From a bacterium (GTDB lineage: Bacteria > Patescibacteriota > Minisyncoccia > UBA6257 > UBA9933), in NCBI GenBank assembly GCA_021796335.1, contig JAJYHZ010000001.1, positions 1 through 55,755 on the forward strand: 55,755 bases of DNA. The letters run 5' to 3'. Both the position numbers and the translations under genes were made by a program. Under the pieces are notes generated by a model. That model was not told where the DNA came from, ran no database searches, and saw only the letters and a program-made list of their open reading frames with translations. Below, in pieces: positions 14,197-23,029 of the stretch. The stretch's first letter is position 1, and each line of letters opens with the position of its first letter.

Positions 14197-15201
14197 TTAA
14201 AAGTCGCCGGGATCCAAATGTGTGGAATACTTATCAAGATAGGGCAGAGGCGTGTCCGCGCATATGAATGTGGCTACCACTTCTCCTTTGGAATTTCTGA
14301 ATTTATCAAAATCAGCCGAATTATTTTTTAGAAATTTAAGAAGTCCCGCCAGGGCAAGGCCGGAGCTAGGGCCGGCCATAATTCCGGCTCTGCACAATTC
14401 CAGGCTGTTTTTGAACGATTCTCTTGTTTCTGCTTCAATTTTATAATCTATCGCCTTATTCCAATCCAATTTGATTTCTTTCAGTCTTTTCTCGTTTCGC
14501 ACTCCTGGAACCGCATGTTTGGGCGCGCAAAGCGTTCCGACAATGGCTATGTTTTTCGATTTTTTTCTGAAATAATTGCTGGCTCCGACAACCGTTCCCG
14601 AAGTCCCGAGGGCCGCGCAGAAAATCGTAAGATCACTTCCCAATTGATTCCAAATTTGATGAGTTGTCCATTTCTCATGCGCCGATCCGTTTGCTTTATT
14701 TTCGTACTGCGCCGGATTGAAATGATTTTTCTTTTTGCCCATTCGGCGCGCCTTTTCTATTCCGCTTGGCTTACCGGGCAATTCTTCGTTGAATACTAGC
14801 TCCGCTCCAAAAAGCCGCAGTAATTCCAATTTCCCCGGAGCGATATCTTTTGGAACAATTGCTTTTACGTTGTTTATTCCAAACAGCGGAGCGATAGCCG
14901 CAAGCGAAAAAGCCGTATTCCCCGAAGAATGTTCCACTATCGTATCCACTCCCTTGAGTTCTCCCGCTTTTTTCGCTTCGAAAAGCATGTTTAAAGCAGT
15001 TAATGACTTTAAATTTAAAAGCGGCAGAAGATACATCAGTTTCGCAAAAATCCTGACTTTGTTTTTGGCAAAAGGGTTTAAACGCCCCGGTAATTCCACA
15101 AGCGGCGTTGGCAGATTATTGTCCGGATTCAAAAAATCAAGAATTGCGCGCGATCCCTTAAAAACATTTGAAGACTCTCTTTTTTTATTTCCGTTTTTCA
15201 T
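14197..15201 (-). CDS. PLP-dependent cysteine synthase-like enzyme (divergent subfamily)
   Basis: PTPLVEL, AKLMYLLPLLNLKS (PLP Lys), SSGNT, NPAQYEN, LGTSGT, GPSSGLA; ATG at 15201. Confidence 0.87.
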   Translation of the reverse strand: MKNGNKKRESSNVFKGSRAILDFLNPDNNLPTPLVELPGRLNPFAKNKVRIFAKLMYLLPLLNLKSLTALNMLFEAKKAGELKGVDTIVEHSSGNTAFSLAAIAPLFGINNVKAIVPKDIAPGKLELLRLFGAELVFNEELPGKPSGIEKARRMGKKKNHFNPAQYENKANGSAHEKWTTHQIWNQLGSDLTIFCAALGTSGTVVGASNYFRKKSKNIAIVGTLCAPKHAVPGVRNEKRLKEIKLDWNKAIDYKIEAETRESFKNSLELCRAGIMAGPSSGLALAGLLKFLKNNSADFDKFRNSKGEVVATFICADTPLPYLDKYSTHLDPGDF

Positions 15202-15208
15202 AATAAAA

Positions 15209-16264
15209 TTATTTTTTCCGCACAATGCAAAACGGCGTCATCTCATCCGACTGGCCCAGGGGATTATCCTTAAAAAGCTTGCCGATGAAATTTTCGCTGA
15301 TTTTTCCCGTTGATTTTCCCAAAGAAAATGCTCCACGGTAATTTGCATCCAGAATAACAGCCTCGCATCCGATTTCATTCTTTATGCGTCTCGCAGCTCC
15401 GTTTGGATTATTCGGCGCAAGTTTTACCGAATGAGCGTATTCTAAAATAAGAAAAGACATCGGACAATCGACTGATTTCGCCAGTTTCCCGGAAATCCTG
15501 TAAAACAAACCGCGAATGCCAAGCGGCCGCGTTATAGCTGAAACGACTGCGGCCAAAAAAATACGCAAATACCCGGCTTCTCCTATGAATGATTGCATTG
15601 CGATGGCGGTGCCATGGCCGAATCCCCGGAATTCATTTGAGCCGTAATAATTGCCGACATTTCGGGCAAGAAATCGCGCGAATGATGTTGGCTTTATTTC
15701 ACTCATATCAATCACACGTCCCTGGGTAATTGTAAGCGCCTTTTCGCTTACAAAAAGGATGTCGCCTGGTTTAATATAAGGATGGACGTACTCTTTAATA
15801 ATCGGCAGGATATCTTTGTCTTGCATGGTGATAAGCCGGGTTTTTACCGGTAACCGTTGATAAATAATCCCGTCAACGTCAATGTCGATTTTTTTGCCGG
15901 GATTCGGGATAAATTCACCGGATGGCGAAGGCGATTGTTTGTCAGGTTTTTCAAAAATGACTTTTTCTCCCCGGAAAAGAGCGAATAATTTTTCTACAAG
16001 GGTTTTTATATTATTCGGGTTATCGTGAATAGCTGTTCGAGATTGCAAAAGTTCCGTTGCTTCCATATATAAGATATGCGCCTCATCTGCGGTATTTGTT
16101 GTAAATATGGCTTCTGCCAAAACTGCATTATTGCTTGCCGATAAAACTCGCATAATTATCGAACCGTTTTCTCTGGACAGGTAATTAATAATCAAACCAG
16201 TCTGATCTTTTACTTCGTCATAGACCAAGGGTTTTTCCATAATTTTTATATTATCATCTGCCAT
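15209..16264 (-). CDS. CofE-like (F420-0:gamma-glutamyl ligase family) protein with extra N-terminal domain
   Basis: LPVKTRLI, GDILFVSEKA...QGR, ILDAN, DNPLGQSDEMTP; about 120 aa unassigned N-terminal extension. Confidence 0.75.
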   Translation of the reverse strand: MADDNIKIMEKPLVYDEVKDQTGLIINYLSRENGSIIMRVLSASNNAVLAEAIFTTNTADEAHILYMEATELLQSRTAIHDNPNNIKTLVEKLFALFRGEKVIFEKPDKQSPSPSGEFIPNPGKKIDIDVDGIIYQRLPVKTRLITMQDKDILPIIKEYVHPYIKPGDILFVSEKALTITQGRVIDMSEIKPTSFARFLARNVGNYYGSNEFRGFGHGTAIAMQSFIGEAGYLRIFLAAVVSAITRPLGIRGLFYRISGKLAKSVDCPMSFLILEYAHSVKLAPNNPNGAARRIKNEIGCEAVILDANYRGAFSLGKSTGKISENFIGKLFKDNPLGQSDEMTPFCIVRKK

Positions 16265-16406
16265 TTTTTTGCACAAATAATATTTAAGCTGATGAGTATG
16301 GCTGTGTTATCGGAAACTTAAATCATCCCCGATGCCCTATTTCCGCGGCGGACTAAATTTATTTTAAATCTTGCTAATTCGTCCGCAATGGTTAATAATA
16401 ATAACA

Positions 16407-16784
16407 ATGCTTATACGTGTTTGCACGGGAAAAATTCACAGGGCGACAGTTACGCAAGCCGAACTACACTATGTCGGTTCCGTTACCATCGACGAAGAAC
16501 TGATTGAAAAAGCCGGTCTTAGACCGTTTCAAATGGTAAATATCAACAATCTGTCAAATGGCACTTTTTGGCAGACATATATTGTTGCCGGGAAAAGGCA
16601 TAGCGGTGACGTGTGTTTGAACGGACCGCCGGCCAGGCATTTTCATCCAGGAGATAAAGTCATAATATTGGGGGAATCGTATGTTGATCCGGCCGAAATG
16701 GATGATCTTAATCCCGTTGTGGTATTCGTTGATGACAATAATAAAATAACCGAAATAAAAAAACATAAAACGATTCGCAATTAA
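16407..16784 (+). CDS. panD: aspartate 1-decarboxylase (pyruvoyl-dependent)
   Basis: K9-I-H11-RATVT, self-cleavage site G24-S25 (YVGSVTID), T57-Y58, LNGPPAR, GDKVII. Confidence 0.93.
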   Translation: MLIRVCTGKIHRATVTQAELHYVGSVTIDEELIEKAGLRPFQMVNINNLSNGTFWQTYIVAGKRHSGDVCLNGPPARHFHPGDKVIILGESYVDPAEMDDLNPVVVFVDDNNKITEIKKHKTIRN

Positions 16785-16830: not shown

Positions 16831-17277
16831 ATGAGAGAAAAACCCCTTGTTTTAATAGTAGATGACGAACCTGATATCAGGGATTTGCTTAAATTTAAAT
16901 TAAGCGGCAACGGCTTTGACGTCGCTGAAGCCGGCGACGGCGTCGAAGGCGTTGAAATGGCTCGCAAAACCAAACCCGATATTATAATTATGGACCTTGT
17001 CATGCCGAGAATGGATGGCGCGGCAGCATTATTTAAAATCAAAGAAGATGAGGATCTTAAAGACATAAAGATATTCATGTTTACCGGCAAAGGCGATCCT
17101 CGTCCCGAATTCGCCGAAGTAAACCGCAAATTCGCTCGTGAAAGCGGTGCTGTTGATTTTATCCGGAAAGAAAGCGATCTTAATGAATTGGTCGCCAAGC
17201 TTCAACACACGGTTCAGGAAACAAGAGATGACGAAAAGTTTAAAGAGGAAAGAGAAAAGCTCCAAGAAGGAATTTAA
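16831..17277 (+). CDS. single-domain response regulator 1 (CheY-like)
   Basis: IVDDE, MDLVMP (phospho-Asp), FTGKG, FIRKE; short charged C-terminal tail. Confidence 0.92.
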   Translation: MREKPLVLIVDDEPDIRDLLKFKLSGNGFDVAEAGDGVEGVEMARKTKPDIIIMDLVMPRMDGAAALFKIKEDEDLKDIKIFMFTGKGDPRPEFAEVNRKFARESGAVDFIRKESDLNELVAKLQHTVQETRDDEKFKEEREKLQEGI

Positions 17278-17318
17278 TTTTCGCAAAATTCTTCGCGCTT
17301 GCCGCGAAGAAATTTACT

Positions 17319-17990
17319 ATGTCTCCGAAAACATTTCAGCAAATCGTCTATTGGCCTATTTTTGCAACGCTTAAATTATTTTTTAATTTTCAAATATACG
17401 GCCGGGAAAATATAAAAGGCTTGGAAAATAAGCCCGTTATTTTTGCCTCCAATCATGCTAACAGGATCGACGGCGTAATCTGCGGCATGGCTTTGCCCCG
17501 GAATAGTTTTGTTCCTCAGAAATTCTTTCCGATCAGATTTCTCGCCGATCATCAGTTTTGCAATTGGGAAAAAAGTCCATTTCCGTTTCCGCTGTCGATT
17601 TTATCTGCGGATTTTGTGAATATGGCCGGTTCGATTCCGGTTATTTCTGGCACCAAGCAGCCGCTTGATGTTGTTTTGGCCGAACCTATCAAGGTCTTAA
17701 AAAATGACGGAAAATTCTGGATCTTTCCCGAAGGCAGAATGACGCGGGACGGAAAACTTCAACCCGGAAAACGCGGCGCAGTTTTTATTCATCAAAAAAC
17801 CGATGCGATTCTCGTACCGGTCGGCCTGATTAACAGCTATAAAATGTTCAGCCTAAGAAATCTGATTAATTTTCTGTTTAAAAAGAAAAAACTGGAATTA
17901 AAATTCGGAAAGCCGATTAATCTGAAAAGCGAATCGGTCGAAACAGGAACGGAAAAATTAATGGCGGAAATTGCTCGGCTTATCAGCTGA
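17319..17990 (+). CDS. PlsC-like (lysophospholipid) acyltransferase 1
   Basis: SNHANRID (HX4D), IFPEGRMT, GKRGA, VPVGL. Confidence 0.88.
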   Translation: MSPKTFQQIVYWPIFATLKLFFNFQIYGRENIKGLENKPVIFASNHANRIDGVICGMALPRNSFVPQKFFPIRFLADHQFCNWEKSPFPFPLSILSADFVNMAGSIPVISGTKQPLDVVLAEPIKVLKNDGKFWIFPEGRMTRDGKLQPGKRGAVFIHQKTDAILVPVGLINSYKMFSLRNLINFLFKKKKLELKFGKPINLKSESVETGTEKLMAEIARLIS

Positions 17991-18106
17991 TTACAGTTAA
18001 GCGGGTTAAGCAATCATTCTGGGCGGAGCGAAGAACTCGATTTTATCCGATTGATTGTTGATTGCAAAACAACGGTTAAACTGTTTTAATTAAAAATAAA
18101 TTAATT

Positions 18107-18505
18107 ATGGATAAAAAACCTTTGGTTTTGATAATCGACGACGAAGAAGACATCCGCACTATGGTCAAATTAAAGCTGCAGGCTAACGGTTTTGATGTCA
18201 GAGAAGCCGGCGACGGGATCGAAGGATTCGATTTAGCCAAAGAAACAAAACCGAATTTGATTCTGCTTGATCTTGTCATGCCGACATTAAACGGCGTCGA
18301 AACTCTTTCCCGACTTAAAACCGAAGATTCCACCAAGGACATCAAGGTATTCCTATTCACCGGAAAAGGCGACCCGCGTCCGGATATAAATGAAGCCAGT
18401 AAACAATTTGCCATTCAAAACGGCGCCGTTGACTTCATCCGCAAAGAAACCGACTTAAATGAAATCGTCAATATCCTTAAAAAAGCAATCGGCATCAATG
18501 CTTAA
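18107..18505 (+). CDS. single-domain response regulator 2
   Basis: IIDDE, LDLVMP, FTGKGDPRP, FIRKE. Confidence 0.92.
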   Translation: MDKKPLVLIIDDEEDIRTMVKLKLQANGFDVREAGDGIEGFDLAKETKPNLILLDLVMPTLNGVETLSRLKTEDSTKDIKVFLFTGKGDPRPDINEASKQFAIQNGAVDFIRKETDLNEIVNILKKAIGINA

Positions 18506-18884
18506 ACAGCCCCTGGTTCTTATTGTGGATGATGAAGAATACATCCGCGAAATCATAAAAATTAAACTGGAAGCTAATGGCATAGAAGTAAAAGAAGCTG
18601 GTAACGGATCGGAAGGCTTAATTTTAGCCGTTAGATATATTCCCAATGTCATCCTATTGGATTTGATTATGCCGATTATGGGAGGGGTTGAAACTTTAGC
18701 TAAACTTCAGGCAAACGAAAAAACCAAGGACATCAAGGTATTCCTATTCACCGGAAAAGGCGACCCGCGTCCGGATATTACCGAAATGAGTAAAAAATTT
18801 GCCATTGACAGCGGCGCCGTTGACTTCATCCGCAAAGAAACCGACTTAAATGACATACTTAAGGAAATCCAAAAGTATATTTAA
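18498..18884 (+). CDS. single-domain response regulator 3
   Basis: ATG 18498 overlaps the RR2 stop; IVDDE, LDLIMP, FTGKGDPRP, FIRKE. Confidence 0.92.
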   Translation: MLKQPLVLIVDDEEYIREIIKIKLEANGIEVKEAGNGSEGLILAVRYIPNVILLDLIMPIMGGVETLAKLQANEKTKDIKVFLFTGKGDPRPDITEMSKKFAIDSGAVDFIRKETDLNDILKEIQKYI

Positions 18885-18894
18885 TAACCAAAAC

Positions 18895-19083
18895 ATGGAG
18901 ATAAAATTTTCAAAACTAGAGACAGTTTCCGGAGCGCCTTTGTGGGTTTTAAATATGCCATTCGCGGAATCGGTTGCGGCAGGCGTGTTTGTTCATACTG
19001 GAAAGAGTTATTATTGTGAAGCAAGGAAAGAGATTTTCGCGTACTTGCAAGAAAAAATTAAGCAGCTTGGATACAGACTTTAA
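18895..19083 (+). pseudogene. chimeric gene remnant: M16 peptidase N-terminus fused to an unrelated C-terminus (SPASM-like)
   Basis: MEIKFSKLETVSGAPLWVLNMPFAESVAAGVFVHTG matches M16 N-termini but HXXEH never follows; the ORF ends KSYYCEARKEIFAYLQEKIKQLGYRL. Confidence 0.55.
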
Positions 19084-19098
19084 GAAAGGAGGACTGCC

Positions 19099-19221
19099 AT
19101 GGAGGCTATTGCAGGCGTACTTGAAAGATCAGTAAGAAATGCCTGGAGTAACTGGCCGGATTGGGAAAACGATGACGAGTTCCCTGATTGGGAAAATGTT
19201 GGCGGAAATCCGCCTAGTTGA
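19099..19221 (+). CDS. 40-aa Trp/acid-rich peptide, putative RiPP precursor (not in ORF track)
   Basis: AAGGAGG at 19086-19092, ATG 6 nt later; MEAIAGVLERSVRNAWSNWPDWENDDEFPDWENVGGNPPS; TGA TAA double stop; terminator follows. Confidence 0.8.
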   Translation: MEAIAGVLERSVRNAWSNWPDWENDDEFPDWENVGGNPPS

Positions 19222-19225
19222 TAAA

Positions 19226-19255
19226 AAGGGCTGCCCTGGTTTGTGGGCAGCCCTT
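19226..19255 (+). terminator. intrinsic terminator-like hairpin after the peptide gene
   Basis: AAGGGCTGCCC-TGGTTTGT-GGGCAGCCCTT, a perfect 11-bp stem, followed by CCTCTTATTTT. Confidence 0.75.
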
Positions 19256-19361
19256 CCTCTTATTTTAACATTGAATAAATCTGTCTTATATAAAAGCAAA
19301 GTATTTACTTGGCTGAAAATTTTTTGGAAAAACATGGGGGAAAATGGTATATTTTCATTAA

Positions 19362-20165
19362 ATGGCTAATTTTTTTATTTTAAATAAATTAAAAAAACTA
19401 TTTGGGAAAACGGAAAAAAAAGCAGAGGCCGATGTAATTAAAATTGAAAAAGCAGTTAAAAAGGAGGCAGGAGAATTTATTGAGGAATATAAAGAAACAA
19501 AATTAGCCAAATACGGCTATTCTTTTTTAAAAAAAATCATAAGTCCCATCATTAAATTTTTTTGGGTGGCTGAAATCGAAGGACTTCATAATATTCCTAA
19601 AGACGGAGCTGTTATAATAGCATCCAATCATGAAAGTTACTTTGATTTCCTGTGTTTTGCTTCTATTTCTCCCAGAAAAGTTCATTATCTTGCGGCTGAA
19701 AAGTTTTTTGAAAATAAAATTTGGAATGTCTTAATGCAATTAACCGGTCAAATTAAAGTAGATCGAAAAAACCATAACAAATCGAAAGTCCATCAACAAG
19801 TTTATTCTGCGCTGTATCAGGGAAGGGTAATAGGAATTTTCCCCGAAGGGACCAGATCTCCGGACGGGAAGCTTTTAAAAGCTTTTACCGGGGTTGCTAA
19901 ATTCGCGTTGAATTCCAAAACGCCGGTTATTCCAGTCGGTATGACGGGAACTTACGAAATAATGTCTCGCCACGATAAATTTCCTAAATTTAAAAAAGCA
20001 AAAATAAAAATAGGAGAACCCATGCATTTCAAAGAATTTTACGATATGGAACACGCCGATGATCATTTTCAGGCCGTTACTGATAAGATTATGCTAAAAA
20101 TCGCAGAATTAACCGGAGAAGAATACGTTCATGCGCGATTTAATAAAATTAAAGATAAAAAATGA
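19362..20165 (+). CDS. PlsC-like acyltransferase 2
   Basis: SNHESYFD (HX4D), IFPEGTRSPDG, AFTGVA, IPVGMTG. Confidence 0.92.
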   Translation: MANFFILNKLKKLFGKTEKKAEADVIKIEKAVKKEAGEFIEEYKETKLAKYGYSFLKKIISPIIKFFWVAEIEGLHNIPKDGAVIIASNHESYFDFLCFASISPRKVHYLAAEKFFENKIWNVLMQLTGQIKVDRKNHNKSKVHQQVYSALYQGRVIGIFPEGTRSPDGKLLKAFTGVAKFALNSKTPVIPVGMTGTYEIMSRHDKFPKFKKAKIKIGEPMHFKEFYDMEHADDHFQAVTDKIMLKIAELTGEEYVHARFNKIKDKK

Positions 20166-20815
20166 AAAACCTGGTTATTTTTGATTTGGACAATACTTTA
20201 ATTAAAGGGCAAAGCCAGAGATTATTGCTTATCTATATGTTTAAAAAGAGGGAGATAAAATTATTCCCCTTTTTAAAAATTCTTTTATGGTTTGTTTTCT
20301 ATAAACTGGATTTTGTCAAAAATCCCAAAGAAATAATGGAATATAGTTTTCAATTTCTAAAAAATAGAAACGTGAATGAATTTGAAAAAAAAATAGGCGA
20401 TTTTTTCGAAAAAAAATTAAAAAATAAATTTTTTAAAGAGTCGCTGGATTTAATAGAAAAACACAAAAAGGAAGGCAGGGAAATTATAATAGTCTCCAAT
20501 GCAATAGAACCGTTGGTAAAAAGAGCGGCTTCGTTTTTGGGGTTGAATAATTTTATCGGAACAAAGTTAGAATACCAAGACGGCTTTTTTACGGGAAGAA
20601 TAGACGGAAATATTATCACGGGGAAAAATAAAGTTATTGAGATTGAAAAATTTTTAAAAAGCGATGATTTTAAAGAAATTTGGGCGTATGGGGATCAGAT
20701 TACGGATTTGCCGTTTCTGGAAATATCAACAAAACCGTTTGTGGTAAACCCTGACAGCTTATTAAGAAAGGTGGCGAAGGAAAGAAATTGGCCAATACTC
20801 AATTTTAAATTATAA
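20162..20815 (+). CDS. HAD-IB family phosphatase (SerB-like)
   Basis: IFDLDNTL (motif I), IVSNA (II), GKNK (III), YGDQITD (IV); ATGA overlap with acyltransferase 2. Confidence 0.9.
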   Translation: MKNLVIFDLDNTLIKGQSQRLLLIYMFKKREIKLFPFLKILLWFVFYKLDFVKNPKEIMEYSFQFLKNRNVNEFEKKIGDFFEKKLKNKFFKESLDLIEKHKKEGREIIIVSNAIEPLVKRAASFLGLNNFIGTKLEYQDGFFTGRIDGNIITGKNKVIEIEKFLKSDDFKEIWAYGDQITDLPFLEISTKPFVVNPDSLLRKVAKERNWPILNFKL

Positions 20816-20827
20816 TTAGTTAATTCC

Positions 20828-23029
20828 ATGAATTTTTTTGCACTGACAGGCTTGGCTAATGCGATAACAAGTACCGTTTTGGGTCTTTTTGTTTTCTTCA
20901 GAAAAAAAGAATTGGTTAATAAACTTTTTGCCTTTTTTTGTTTTGTAATCGCTTTTTGGGGATATAGCTATTATTTTCAAGACATTACAGCTATCCCATC
21001 TGAAGCGTTTATTTTGGCCAAATTATTAATTGCTGGAGCTATTTTTATACCAATTTCTTATTTGCATTTTGTCCTTGCTTTTACGGATTCTATTAAAAGC
21101 CACAAAAAAATTATTTGGTTCGGCTATATTTTCTTCGTAGTAATATTTTTGCTGGATATTTTTACTAAACTGGTTGTTAGAGGAGTCGGCCCTAAATTGG
21201 TTTTCGAATTTTGGCCCGAGCCCGGAGCTATTTTCCATCCGTTTCTGTTTATCTGGGGGTCATTTATGATCTACACGGTATATATACTCATAAAAAATTA
21301 CAAAATTTCTGAAGGGATTAAGAGAAAACAGGTACAGCTTATTCTAATCGGAACCATAATAGGGTATTTGGGTGGGGCTACCAATTATTTTCTTTATTAC
21401 AATATTCCGATCTTGCCTATCGGTAATTGGGCAATTGTCTTTTATTTGGGAATAGTCGCATACGTTATTTTAAAATATCAATTATTCAATATAAAAGTTA
21501 TTGCCACGGAAGCCATAACTTTTATAATATGGGCTTTTTTGTCCATCAGATTTCTGCTGGATACAGCCATAAGCGAAAGAATAGTTGACGGCGCTATTTT
21601 ATTTTTAGTCATAATATTCGGGATTCTTTTAATTCGCAGCGTTTTAAAGGAAGTCTCCCAGCGTGAAGAAATGGAAAAGCTGACCCATTCTCTCGAAGCC
21701 AGCAATATCAAACTCAGCACTGAAACGCGTTATTTAACCGATTTACAGGAATTCACAACTTCCATTATGGAAGATATAGATTTCAAAAAAGTTATCCAGG
21801 CAATTGTGGACGAAGTAAGCCAAAGATTTGGCTATATCGGAGCGGTTCTTTTTCTGGTCTCCGATGACAATAAAAAAATATCTCCTGTTGCAGTTTCCGG
21901 TGGGACGGCTTCGAAAATCGCTTTCAAATTGCTGCCCAAACAAATTGATCACTTTGATTCTCTATTGGAGAAAGATGCCACTTTGTCTTCTTTGGCAATC
22001 AAATCAAATCAGATAGAGATAGACGAAGATTTCTCAAAGTTCTTTTCAATTATTCCGCAAAATATTTTAATCGCAATTCAAAAAGTTTTAGGCGTAAAAA
22101 CCACTATTGCCATCCCGGTCAAATCAAAGGGAAAGGCATGGGGCGTTTTGGATGTCGCTTCTAAAAAGTTCAGAGAGGAATTTTCCAGCGAAGAACTGGA
22201 TGTTCTGACAATTTTAGCCAACCAAATCGGAATTATTCTCGACAATGTCGATCTTTTCGAACAGACCAAACAGTTAAGCTCTTATAAAACCGAACTTCTT
22301 TCCATTGTCGCTCACCAGCTCAAAAATCCTTTGGTTGTAATTAAGGGATATTCTTCTTTAGTTGATGATCAGACTATTAATGACATAGCTACCATGAAAG
22401 AAGTTTTCAAAAAGATTAAACTTTCTTCCGATAAGCTAATTATGCTCTTAAATAACCTTCTTGATCTTCACCATATTGAAGAGGGCAAGATGCATTATGA
22501 AATGCAGCCGGTTGAATTAAATAAAATGCTTAAAGATATTGTGGATAACTTCCAAATTGTCGCGAAGCAGAGAAAACTAAATTTGATTTTTAAGCCATTT
22601 CCCAAGGATGTGAACATAAATGCCGATCCGTATAAAATAAGCCAGGTATTTCAAAATTTGATCGACAATTCTTTAAAATACACTCCCGAAGGATGGGTTG
22701 AAATCGATATTTTAAACGATGCGGAAGAAAATTCCATCCTTGTTAAGATATTCGATTCCGGTTTGGGTATGAGCAAGGAATTGGTCGGGAAATTATTCCA
22801 AAAATTTTCCCGCGGGGTGGAAGAACAGCAAATTTTAGGAACTGGTCTGGGGCTTTATATCAGCAAAGAAATCGTTGAAATGCACGGAGGAAAAATTTGG
22901 GCTGAATCCGACGGCGAAGGAAAGGGCAGTAGGTTTTTTGTTAAATTACCTATAATAATCGGGTCCGTTACTGCTGTTCCAATAACTCAAAATAATTCCG
23001 CTCAAGAGCAAAAAACAGCAGTAAAATAA
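20828..23029 (+). CDS. sensor histidine kinase: N-terminal 7TM (HisKA_7TM-like) - GAF - HisKA - HATPase
   Basis: Multi-TM N-terminus; GAF (IAIPVKSKGKAWGVLDV); H-box VAHQLKNP; N-box NLIDNSLKY; DSGLG and GTGLGL. Confidence 0.93.
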   Translation: MNFFALTGLANAITSTVLGLFVFFRKKELVNKLFAFFCFVIAFWGYSYYFQDITAIPSEAFILAKLLIAGAIFIPISYLHFVLAFTDSIKSHKKIIWFGYIFFVVIFLLDIFTKLVVRGVGPKLVFEFWPEPGAIFHPFLFIWGSFMIYTVYILIKNYKISEGIKRKQVQLILIGTIIGYLGGATNYFLYYNIPILPIGNWAIVFYLGIVAYVILKYQLFNIKVIATEAITFIIWAFLSIRFLLDTAISERIVDGAILFLVIIFGILLIRSVLKEVSQREEMEKLTHSLEASNIKLSTETRYLTDLQEFTTSIMEDIDFKKVIQAIVDEVSQRFGYIGAVLFLVSDDNKKISPVAVSGGTASKIAFKLLPKQIDHFDSLLEKDATLSSLAIKSNQIEIDEDFSKFFSIIPQNILIAIQKVLGVKTTIAIPVKSKGKAWGVLDVASKKFREEFSSEELDVLTILANQIGIILDNVDLFEQTKQLSSYKTELLSIVAHQLKNPLVVIKGYSSLVDDQTINDIATMKEVFKKIKLSSDKLIMLLNNLLDLHHIEEGKMHYEMQPVELNKMLKDIVDNFQIVAKQRKLNLIFKPFPKDVNINADPYKISQVFQNLIDNSLKYTPEGWVEIDILNDAEENSILVKIFDSGLGMSKELVGKLFQKFSRGVEEQQILGTGLGLYISKEIVEMHGGKIWAESDGEGKGSRFFVKLPIIIGSVTAVPITQNNSAQEQKTAVK

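Follow-up and report, generated by a model that had tools for sequence, protein, structure and literature searches.

Does a locus in a small-genome lineage encode a system that makes a lipid and then senses it? The question is raised by positions 16831 to 23029 of a 55,755-nt stretch of contig JAJYHZ010000001.1 (assembly GCA_021796335.1; the whole stretch is called the window here), which comes from a mine-drainage metagenome. This locus encodes two PlsC-family acyltransferases (PlsC1 and PlsC2), a HAD-IB phosphatase (HAD), a histidine kinase with a seven-transmembrane (7TM) sensor and a GAF domain, and three stand-alone receivers (RR1 to RR3). The closest relatives of its proteins are found in metagenome-assembled genomes of Patescibacteria/Parcubacteria. 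Patescibacteria, also known as the candidate phyla radiation (CPR), are presumed to live on other cells, scavenging their lipids, and almost nothing is known about how they sense their partners or their own membrane supply. We propose, with a probability of about 0.45, that the enzymes make a neutral acylglycerol and that the membrane domain of the kinase reads this acylglycerol or the lipid pool altered by it. The enzymes and the kinase are intact, the coupling of HAD to the kinase and of PlsC to HAD is conserved and includes one fusion, and kinases of this type are paired across their family with acyl-tailoring enzymes.

The linkage was surveyed from the phosphatase side in ten distinct orthologue neighborhoods, window included, with 35-56% identity to the window HAD. 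A HisKA_7TM kinase directly follows HAD, at -8 to +12 nt, in nine of them (the window, L124, L127, L129, L130, L131, L133, L134, and L083). A PlsC2-type acyltransferase is adjacent or fused to HAD in seven: the group-B PlsC, to which PlsC2 belongs, adjoins HAD in six (the window, L127, L130, L132, L133, and L134), and in L083 both are joined in one 445-aa protein carrying PF01553 and PF12710. Group-B PlsC genes also lie within 5 kb of HAD in L124 and L131, a group-A (PlsC1-like) acyltransferase is present in most HAD-type loci, and L133 is a clean PlsC-PlsC-HAD-kinase operon. A metagenome scan with the HAD profile and a generic DxDxT pattern retrieved mostly distant HAD-IB proteins; the sole orthologue among them was L083, and we used the others as a negative control. 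No PlsC or kinase neighbor was found in the 38 distant HAD-IB loci (0/38), which argues, next to nine of ten orthologue neighborhoods, that the arrangement is more than chance. Each locus has other genes at its flanks (among them rpsB, a tRNA synthetase, GreA, and nusA), so the unit has been kept amid changing surroundings. An earlier note on this DNA had regarded a lack of conserved linkage across genomes as fatal to its idea of a lipid-signal module; the idea is not refuted on this ground, because PlsC2-HAD-7TM kinase is a conserved unit. Full-text literature searches turned up neither HisKA_7TM kinases described as coupled to PlsC/HAD nor any account of such systems in Patescibacteria.

The features of the locus are the following.

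16831..17277, plus strand: RR1, stand-alone receiver, 148 aa (Pfam Response_reg, 9.6e-25)
17319..17990, plus strand: PlsC1, group-A LPLAT/PlsC-family acyltransferase, 223 aa (PF01553, 1.7e-15, 57.4 bits)
18107..18505, plus strand: RR2, stand-alone receiver, 132 aa (Pfam Response_reg, 1.2e-22)
18498..18884 (open reading frame opens at 18459), plus strand: RR3, stand-alone receiver, ~128 aa (Pfam, 1.6e-19)
18885..19361, plus strand: degenerate spacer, ~480 nt (sequence read directly)
19362..20165, plus strand: PlsC2, group-B LPLAT/PlsC-family acyltransferase, 267 aa (PF01553, 4.6e-28, 98.1 bits)
20162..20815, plus strand: HAD-IB phosphatase, 217 aa (PF12710, 2.2e-31; TIGR01490, 143.6 bits)
20828..21445, plus strand: kinase residues 1 to ~205, variable HisKA_7TM sensor with transmembrane (TM) helices 1-6/7 (PF16927, 52.6 bits)
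21446..23029, plus strand: kinase residues ~206-733, with the last TM helices, linker, GAF, DHp (H496), and ATPase core (Pfam)

Pfam and NCBIfam agreed with every domain call made in the earlier note, and the ATGA overlap of PlsC2 and HAD and the 12-nt gap between the HAD stop and the kinase start were both read directly in the sequence. The genes are indeed co-oriented, but this is uninformative, as every neighbor between 16371 and 27000 also lies on the plus strand, which is common to every gene from panD to L11. Catalytic motifs are undamaged in every protein of the locus.

The kinase (733 aa) consists of HisKA_7TM (aa 12-222), two further TM helices, GAF (aa 320-471), HisKA, and HATPase_c. 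Its sensor scores 52.6 bits against the PF16927 gathering cutoff of 28.6, placing it in the HisKA_7TM family, and several hydrophobic segments lie in aa 6-273. The Pfam matches to HisKA (4.5e-11) and HATPase_c (7e-25) identify it as a histidine kinase, and H496 of the H-box, N610, N614, D643, G645, and G647 are invariant in the alignment. In the literature that we searched, HisKA_7TM appears only in two surveys listing sensor domains, without a ligand.

We also surveyed the locus from the kinase side, in 80 genome loci of kinase relatives plus one assembly locus. A PlsC lies within 8 kb in few of these, and a HAD of the window type in none, so that on a kinase-first view the proposal of the earlier note looked refuted. 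In nearly every locus, a same-strand gene for a protein of ~290-360 aa ends at most ~100 nt before the kinase start. This gene encodes an S-adenosylmethionine (SAM) methyltransferase (Pfam) in at least 54 of 75 kinase-family loci drawn from CPR, Omnitrophota, Nitrospirota, Binatota, and others; 13 loci have at this position a LuxD-like acyl transferase fused with a BioC/UbiE-like methyltransferase, some with lipid-binding PilZ or START domains at the N-terminus. The protein encoded just before the kinase in L038 (Falkowbacteria) joins a group-A PlsC domain to the methyltransferase, and group-A PlsC is also found beside the methyltransferase-type kinases of L001, L003, and L029. A single-domain receiver usually lies downstream of the kinase. 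Because the upstream gene is a methyltransferase, a LuxD-like enzyme, or a PlsC fusion, the kinase family is wired to acyl-tailoring enzymes, and the window holds a PlsC/HAD variant of a widespread cassette. No methyltransferase of the family found with the kinase relatives is encoded in the 55-kb window or in the HAD-type loci. A glyceryl ester is chemically akin to the methyl ester that the methyltransferase cassettes would be expected to yield, both being neutral, membrane-soluble fatty-acyl esters.

As a separate observation, the order PilZ, START, LuxD-like acyl transferase, BioC-like methyltransferase precedes 7TM-GAF kinases in L033, L034, L059, and L067, and such multidomain enzymes were seen in Omnitrophota, Nitrospirota, and Thermodesulfobacteriota.

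The closest syntenic genome, GCA_041642995.1 (L136), allows the enzymes and the sensor to be compared at the same site. Its gene order is RR-RR-PlsC-PlsC-RR ... kinase ... gyrB-nusG, and GyrB and NusG, both encoded downstream of the orthologous kinase, are 79% and 78% identical to those of the window. The ATPase/DHp core of the two kinases is 71% identical, GAF 49%, and TM8-9 with the linker 54%. Identity breaks near residue 205: after it, values range from 45 to 93%, and residues 1-195 are only 13-40% identical and unalignable by BLASTP. At this site in L136 (7302-10737), the kinase is preceded by genes for a 574-aa GDSL lipase, a GNAT, and a pyridoxal phosphate (PLP) enzyme of the AONS/Kbl/SPT/CqsA family; PlsC2 and HAD are absent within 20 kb. 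The PLP enzyme gene ends 16 nt before the kinase; its scores (NF005526, 220 bits; Kbl, BioF, and SPT models, 370-410 bits) are all below the family cutoffs, and enzyme and kinase together are a candidate CqsA/CqsS-like variant of the cassette. The kinase of L028, which is methyltransferase-linked, shows the reverse pattern, being 50% identical to the window kinase in the sensor and 34% in the core. Since L136 shares the core and neither sensor nor enzymes, and L028 shares the sensor more than the core, this mosaic shows that TM helices 1 to 6 or 7 turn over jointly with the enzyme block as the rest of the kinase stays. The content of G and C at third codon positions (GC3) in the variable block (~19300-21450) is 0.28 for PlsC2, 0.335 for HAD, and 0.338 for kinase residues 1-210, against a background of 0.41 +/- 0.04 and 0.41-0.48 in the neighboring receivers and PlsC1. 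Such co-variation of enzyme and sensor would be expected of a synthase/receptor pair, and it is hard to square with a sensor of bulk membrane state. Together with the place of the kinase family directly behind acyl-tailoring enzymes, it fits a logic like that of LuxM/LuxN, PhcB/PhcS, or CqsA/CqsS, in keeping with the LuxI/LuxN-like logic of the earlier note. The two loci are also a natural experiment, with the same kinase core behind a different sensor and different enzymes, that could be used to map ligand specificity.

PlsC2 carries the motifs H90ESYFD and FPEGTR, with 98.1 bits for PF01553 against a cutoff of 23, and forms an orthologue clade with the proteins of L124, L127, L130, L131, L132, L133, L134, and the L083 fusion (support 95/96). 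HAD carries D8LDNT and GDQITD and belongs to the HAD-IB subfamily (TIGR01490, 143.6 bits against a cutoff of 98.3). None of the four HAD motifs varies in the orthologue alignment, where D8, D10, S112, K157, D178, and D182 are conserved, and the orthologues form a clade apart from the distant HAD-IB loci (100/100). Close relatives are few, with 19 clusters in 5.8 billion proteins, and the nearest solved structure is 3fvv, an uncharacterized protein, followed by phosphoserine phosphatases. Identification of HAD as SerB was ruled out (NCBIfam score of 39 against a cutoff of 144), as were histidinol-phosphatase (117 against 280 and 90 against 400 in two models) and PgpC/YfhB, for which no YfhB-type model was among the NCBIfam matches.

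The receivers were placed in one module with the enzymes and the kinase by the earlier note; we find instead that they belong with PlsC1 to a separate conserved block behind a terminator. A terminator-like hairpin at 19226-19255 (11 bp, 8 GC) is followed by a promoter-like site at 19324-19353, and since both lie between the blocks, the locus is likely split into two transcription units, RR1-PlsC1-RR2-RR3 and PlsC2-HAD-kinase. RR1 has a 6-residue insertion of the FTGKGDPRP type and no output domain, and the conservation of D11/D12, D55, T85, and K113 in the alignment marks it as a two-component receiver. RR3 probably starts at 18498, overlapping the end of RR2. All three are single-domain proteins without an output or DNA-binding domain. 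Their mutual identity is 53-55% (RR2 and RR1, 55%), and public data hold ~35 clusters of RR2 relatives at 56-66% identity. Each has a one-to-one orthologue in L136 (RR1 64%; RR2 63%, RRb; RR3 59%, RRc). Orthology with the receivers downstream of the relatives' kinases was ruled out at 19-32% identity, and RR1 to RR3 are therefore not relocated copies of those.

RR1 orthologues directly precede a PlsC1-type acyltransferase in L136 (64% identity) and L137 (63%), and in L137-139 the RR1 orthologue ends 10 nt upstream of the group-A PlsC. Three genomes (the window, L136, and L137) thus conserve the pair of RR followed by group-A PlsC, a hint at an action of the phosphorylated receiver on the acyltransferase. 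PlsC1 itself has H46ANRID (HX4D) and FPEG at 136, scores above the PF01553 cutoff of 23 bits, clusters with the proteins of L131, L001, and L003 (100/98), and is 50% identical to PlsCa of L136 and 47% to PlsC of L137. Between RR1 and PlsC1, at 17289-17311, lies a 9-bp GC-rich hairpin without a T-run, which may be regulatory.

The spacer at 18885-19361 marks the upstream edge of the variable block, and its scars indicate that the locus has been remodeled. It holds a 40-aa Trp-rich open reading frame (ORF) at 19099-19221 (MEAIAGVLERSVRNAWSNWPDWENDDEFPDWENVGGNPPS) with an AAGGAGG Shine-Dalgarno site 6 nt upstream, a double stop, and the hairpin just after; no relative of this peptide was found in any fetched locus. 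Other remnants were seen in the spacer. A 62-aa ORF fragment (18895-19083) begins like the N-terminus of an M16 peptidase, and an M16 peptidase that is intact lies next to PlsC-A and PlsC-B in L131. A frame at 19139-19215, overlapping the 40-aa ORF, is a gene fragment with a Mur-ligase-like P-loop (VTGRIGKTMTSSLIGKML) that matched L035-L043, ~3 kb upstream of the kinases there (E ~0.01, small database).

The wider neighborhood is made up of housekeeping genes (ScpB, PBP, a MraY-like gene, panD, gyrB, nusG, and L11). Adjoining panD is a divergent pair (14197-16784) of an F420-ligase-like gene (weak Pfam match, 33 bits) and a PALP-fold (CysK-like) gene, which is unrelated to the cassette. When transcripts were sought, the stretch matched only DNA runs of the mine-drainage study and none of the metatranscriptomes of the same study. 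In other genomes, an MsbA-like ABC exporter (ABC_membrane and ABC_tran) lies between the two acyltransferase genes of the HAD-type cassette of L124 (3485-5182) and is a possible product exporter. Radical-SAM/SPASM genes, small ORFs, and GNATs recur in this CPR clade near the RR-to-PlsC-A pair or the kinase (L137, 10001-19538; L001, 4813-8051; L003, 2892-6824; L129, 379-7432); they suggest a cluster of the kind that makes ribosomally synthesized and modified peptides, lost from the window.

How could these parts work together? Two acyltransferases and a phosphatase are the enzyme set for a route to neutral acylglycerol, which is why we propose it. PlsC2, probably with PlsC1, would acylate a glycerol-phosphate-type acceptor (glycerol-3-phosphate or lysophosphatidate), and HAD would then remove the phosphate to give a neutral mono- or diacylglycerol. 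A phosphatidate phosphatase step has been proposed for the PlsC-HAD operons and fusions of Rhodococcus and for Rv2483c of Mycobacterium tuberculosis (PMC4850399), and in plants GPAT4/6 make 2-monoacylglycerol by acylation and then dephosphorylation, as demonstrated by Yang 2010 according to its citation in PMC10593935. The acylglycerol, or the lipid pool altered by it, would partition into the membrane, where the N-terminal 7TM domain of the probably co-transcribed kinase may read it. The kinase would autophosphorylate on H496 and pass the phosphate to stand-alone receivers, for which the first transcription unit (RR1-PlsC1-RR2-RR3) supplies candidates. The output would feed back on acylation by protein-protein contact instead of transcription, a feedback suggested by the position of RR1 directly before the group-A acyltransferase in the three genomes. 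We infer the substrate, the product, the product as the ligand, and RR1 to RR3 as phosphoacceptors; the lipid-signal synthesis and sensing envisaged in the earlier note is thus upheld in the conserved unit and the joint turnover of enzymes and sensor, but as to the acylglycerol, its diffusion and sensing, and the host-derived acyl donors it stays at this inferred level. The signal might act between cells or might only report the cell's own lipid supply; both fall within our reading.

Several findings weigh against a make-and-sense cassette. The sensor of the window resembles those linked to methyltransferases (46-50% identity to L028, L042, and L072) more than those linked to HAD (29-34%). The eight other HAD-linked kinases form one long-stemmed clade (support 100/99), and in all bootstrap trees the window kinase stands outside it, beside methyltransferase-linked kinases (it joins the clade in 0%); approximately unbiased (AU) tests do not reject a single HAD-linked clade, either for the kinase tree (p = 0.18 and 0.10) or for the HAD tree (p = 0.15). 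The 7TM kinase named in the earlier note is real, but its sensor is of the methyltransferase-paired type and not that of its eight HAD-linked counterparts, so that the match of enzyme and sensor is imperfect in the window genome. The PlsC2-HAD pair is dispensable at this locus, given its absence from L136, and L132 has PlsC-HAD as the sole HAD neighborhood without a kinase. Both acyltransferases fall short of the NCBIfam cutoff of TIGR00530 for bona fide 1-acylglycerol-3-phosphate O-acyltransferase (102.95 bits), with 94.2 bits for PlsC2, just below it, and 43.3 bits for PlsC1, and their substrate is thus not assignable from sequence. No characterized close relative of HAD was found among its solved-structure relatives. 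In addition, hydrophobic codon usage could explain some of the low GC in the 7TM part. Two possibilities would account for the sensor mismatch. PlsC2-HAD may have been coupled twice to this kinase family, which, if true, would strengthen the functional case, or the window may be a rearrangement hybrid, which, if true, would weaken it.

Such a hybrid would have arisen when a methyltransferase-type kinase lost its partner and PlsC2-HAD came to lie before it in the course of the deletions and insertions whose scars are seen at 18885-19361, leaving no functional link in the window genome. The position of the kinase fits, with sensor and core nearest to methyltransferase-linked or L136-type kinases and not to HAD-linked ones, as do the gene fragments and stray terminator in the degenerate spacer upstream of PlsC2, the deviant GC3 of PlsC2-HAD, and L136 itself, which shows that the locus tolerates quite different contents. 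We nevertheless consider it improbable: by chance, the same enzyme pair that serves eight other kinases of the family would have had to land in the same position, 12 nt away and intact. Moreover, the low-GC3 block reaches into the sensor-coding part, suggesting that enzymes and sensor arrived jointly, and the AU tests leave a single origin of the HAD linkage unrejected (p = 0.10-0.18). A more serious competitor, if unlikely on balance, is membrane-lipid homeostasis; the alternative in the earlier note, in which remodeling of scavenged lipids is under the control of the kinase, likewise stays a live competitor. In homeostasis, PlsC1, PlsC2, and HAD would carry out ordinary phospholipid assembly or re-acylation of scavenged lysolipids, and the 7TM kinase would sense a bulk property such as lysolipid fraction, curvature, or fluidity and tune the enzymes through the receivers, as DesK does, with no specific product. 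The abundance of lysolipids in CPR bacteria, which carry PlsC and PlsY and lack complete lipid synthesis (PMC7242380), suits this explanation, as do the placement of RR1 directly upstream of the group-A PlsC in the window, L136, and L137 and the setting among ScpB, PBP, the MraY-like gene, gyrB, nusG, and L11. The sensor is also of a generic type shared with methyltransferase loci, as expected if it read general membrane state. Against this, the upstream enzymes of the family (BioC-like methyltransferases, LuxD-like enzymes with PilZ/START, CqsA/SPT-family enzymes) are not bulk-membrane enzymes, the first 200 residues of the sensor are swapped together with the enzyme block between relatives with 71%-identical cores, and the receivers have no DNA-binding domain.

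The kinase could also read something other than the PlsC/HAD product, such as a modified peptide made by radical-SAM/SPASM genes, in the manner of AgrC, or else the substrate of HAD could be a phosphate ester that is not a lipid, or a relay phosphoprotein. In L001, L003, L129, L131, and L137, radical-SAM/SPASM genes with small ORFs and GNATs are found close to the kinase or to the RR-PlsC pair, which would be in keeping with this, and so would the 40-aa Trp-rich ORF that the window keeps with its Shine-Dalgarno site and terminator, and the phosphoserine phosphatases that are the nearest characterized relatives of HAD. Yet the HAD-kinase coupling persists in L124, L127, L130, L133, L134, and the window, where radical-SAM genes are absent; no fetched locus holds a relative of the window peptide, the PlsC-HAD fusion of L083 ties HAD to acyl chemistry, and HAD stays well short of the cutoffs of the SerB and histidinol-phosphatase models. 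We regard this explanation as very improbable.

A wider version of the make-and-sense reading can be formulated, in which HisKA_7TM domains would act within the membrane as receptors of fatty-acyl derivatives that the cell itself makes, synthase and sensor would be exchangeable cassettes, and the window would speak a hitherto unseen dialect, a mono- or diacylglycerol made by two PlsC-type acyltransferases and a HAD phosphatase, for cell-cell or host-contact sensing in CPR. We think this rather doubtful; if true, it would mean bacterial acylglycerol signaling read by a histidine kinase. The window extends a widespread and uncharacterized family of the "enzyme then 7TM kinase" type, found across many uncultured phyla, by a member that would use acylation and dephosphorylation in place of methylation, and a conserved operon of lipid enzymes and a membrane kinase gives a concrete entry point to sensing in CPR, with three small enzymes, one kinase, and three receivers.

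Among known systems, the nearest in logic are phcBSRQ of Ralstonia and CqsA/CqsS. In phcBSRQ, a quorum-sensing system, synthase, kinase, and non-DNA-binding receivers share one operon: the methyltransferase PhcB makes methyl 3-hydroxy fatty-acid esters, PhcS is the kinase, and PhcR and PhcQ are receivers (PMC11960443, PMC6989110). As judged from its genes alone, the window likewise has an enzyme gene directly before a polytopic sensor kinase in one operon (12 nt; ATGA), a position kept in nine of the ten neighborhoods, and several receivers without DNA-binding domains. The Phc product is a neutral fatty-acyl ester, as proposed for the window, and most relatives of the window kinase carry a methyltransferase at the position equivalent to phcB. 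The window differs in having PlsC2 and HAD in place of a PhcB-type SAM methyltransferase, and it has no PhcA-type regulator. CqsA/CqsS of Vibrio and LqsA/LqsS of Legionella also have an enzyme for an acyl-derived signal (an alpha-hydroxyketone) encoded beside a multi-pass sensor kinase. This likeness sits in L136, where the gene 16 nt before the orthologous kinase is of the same PLP superfamily as CqsA, although that enzyme scores below the family cutoffs and the window has none of this kind; HisKA_7TM is not known from CqsS or LqsS. An acyltransferase paired or fused with a HAD-type phosphatase is known from the actinobacterial Kennedy pathway (plsC of Rhodococcus RHA1; Rv2483c of M. tuberculosis) and from plant GPAT4/6, and the L083 fusion is of the same kind as the actinobacterial ones. 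Those pairs, compared here by the pairing alone, serve storage lipid or cutin and have no kinase partner. DesK/DesR of Bacillus subtilis shares a purely membrane-embedded kinase sensor linked to the gene of a lipid-modifying enzyme, but the sensor of the window belongs to another fold family (HisKA_7TM), DesR binds DNA, and des is a separate unit, whereas the receivers here and beside the relatives' kinases are all single-domain proteins without output, and the enzyme gene lies upstream of the kinase, probably co-transcribed with it. Cassettes of a signal enzyme and a sensor kinase are known, and the PlsC/HAD form with a HisKA_7TM kinase is a new variation on them.

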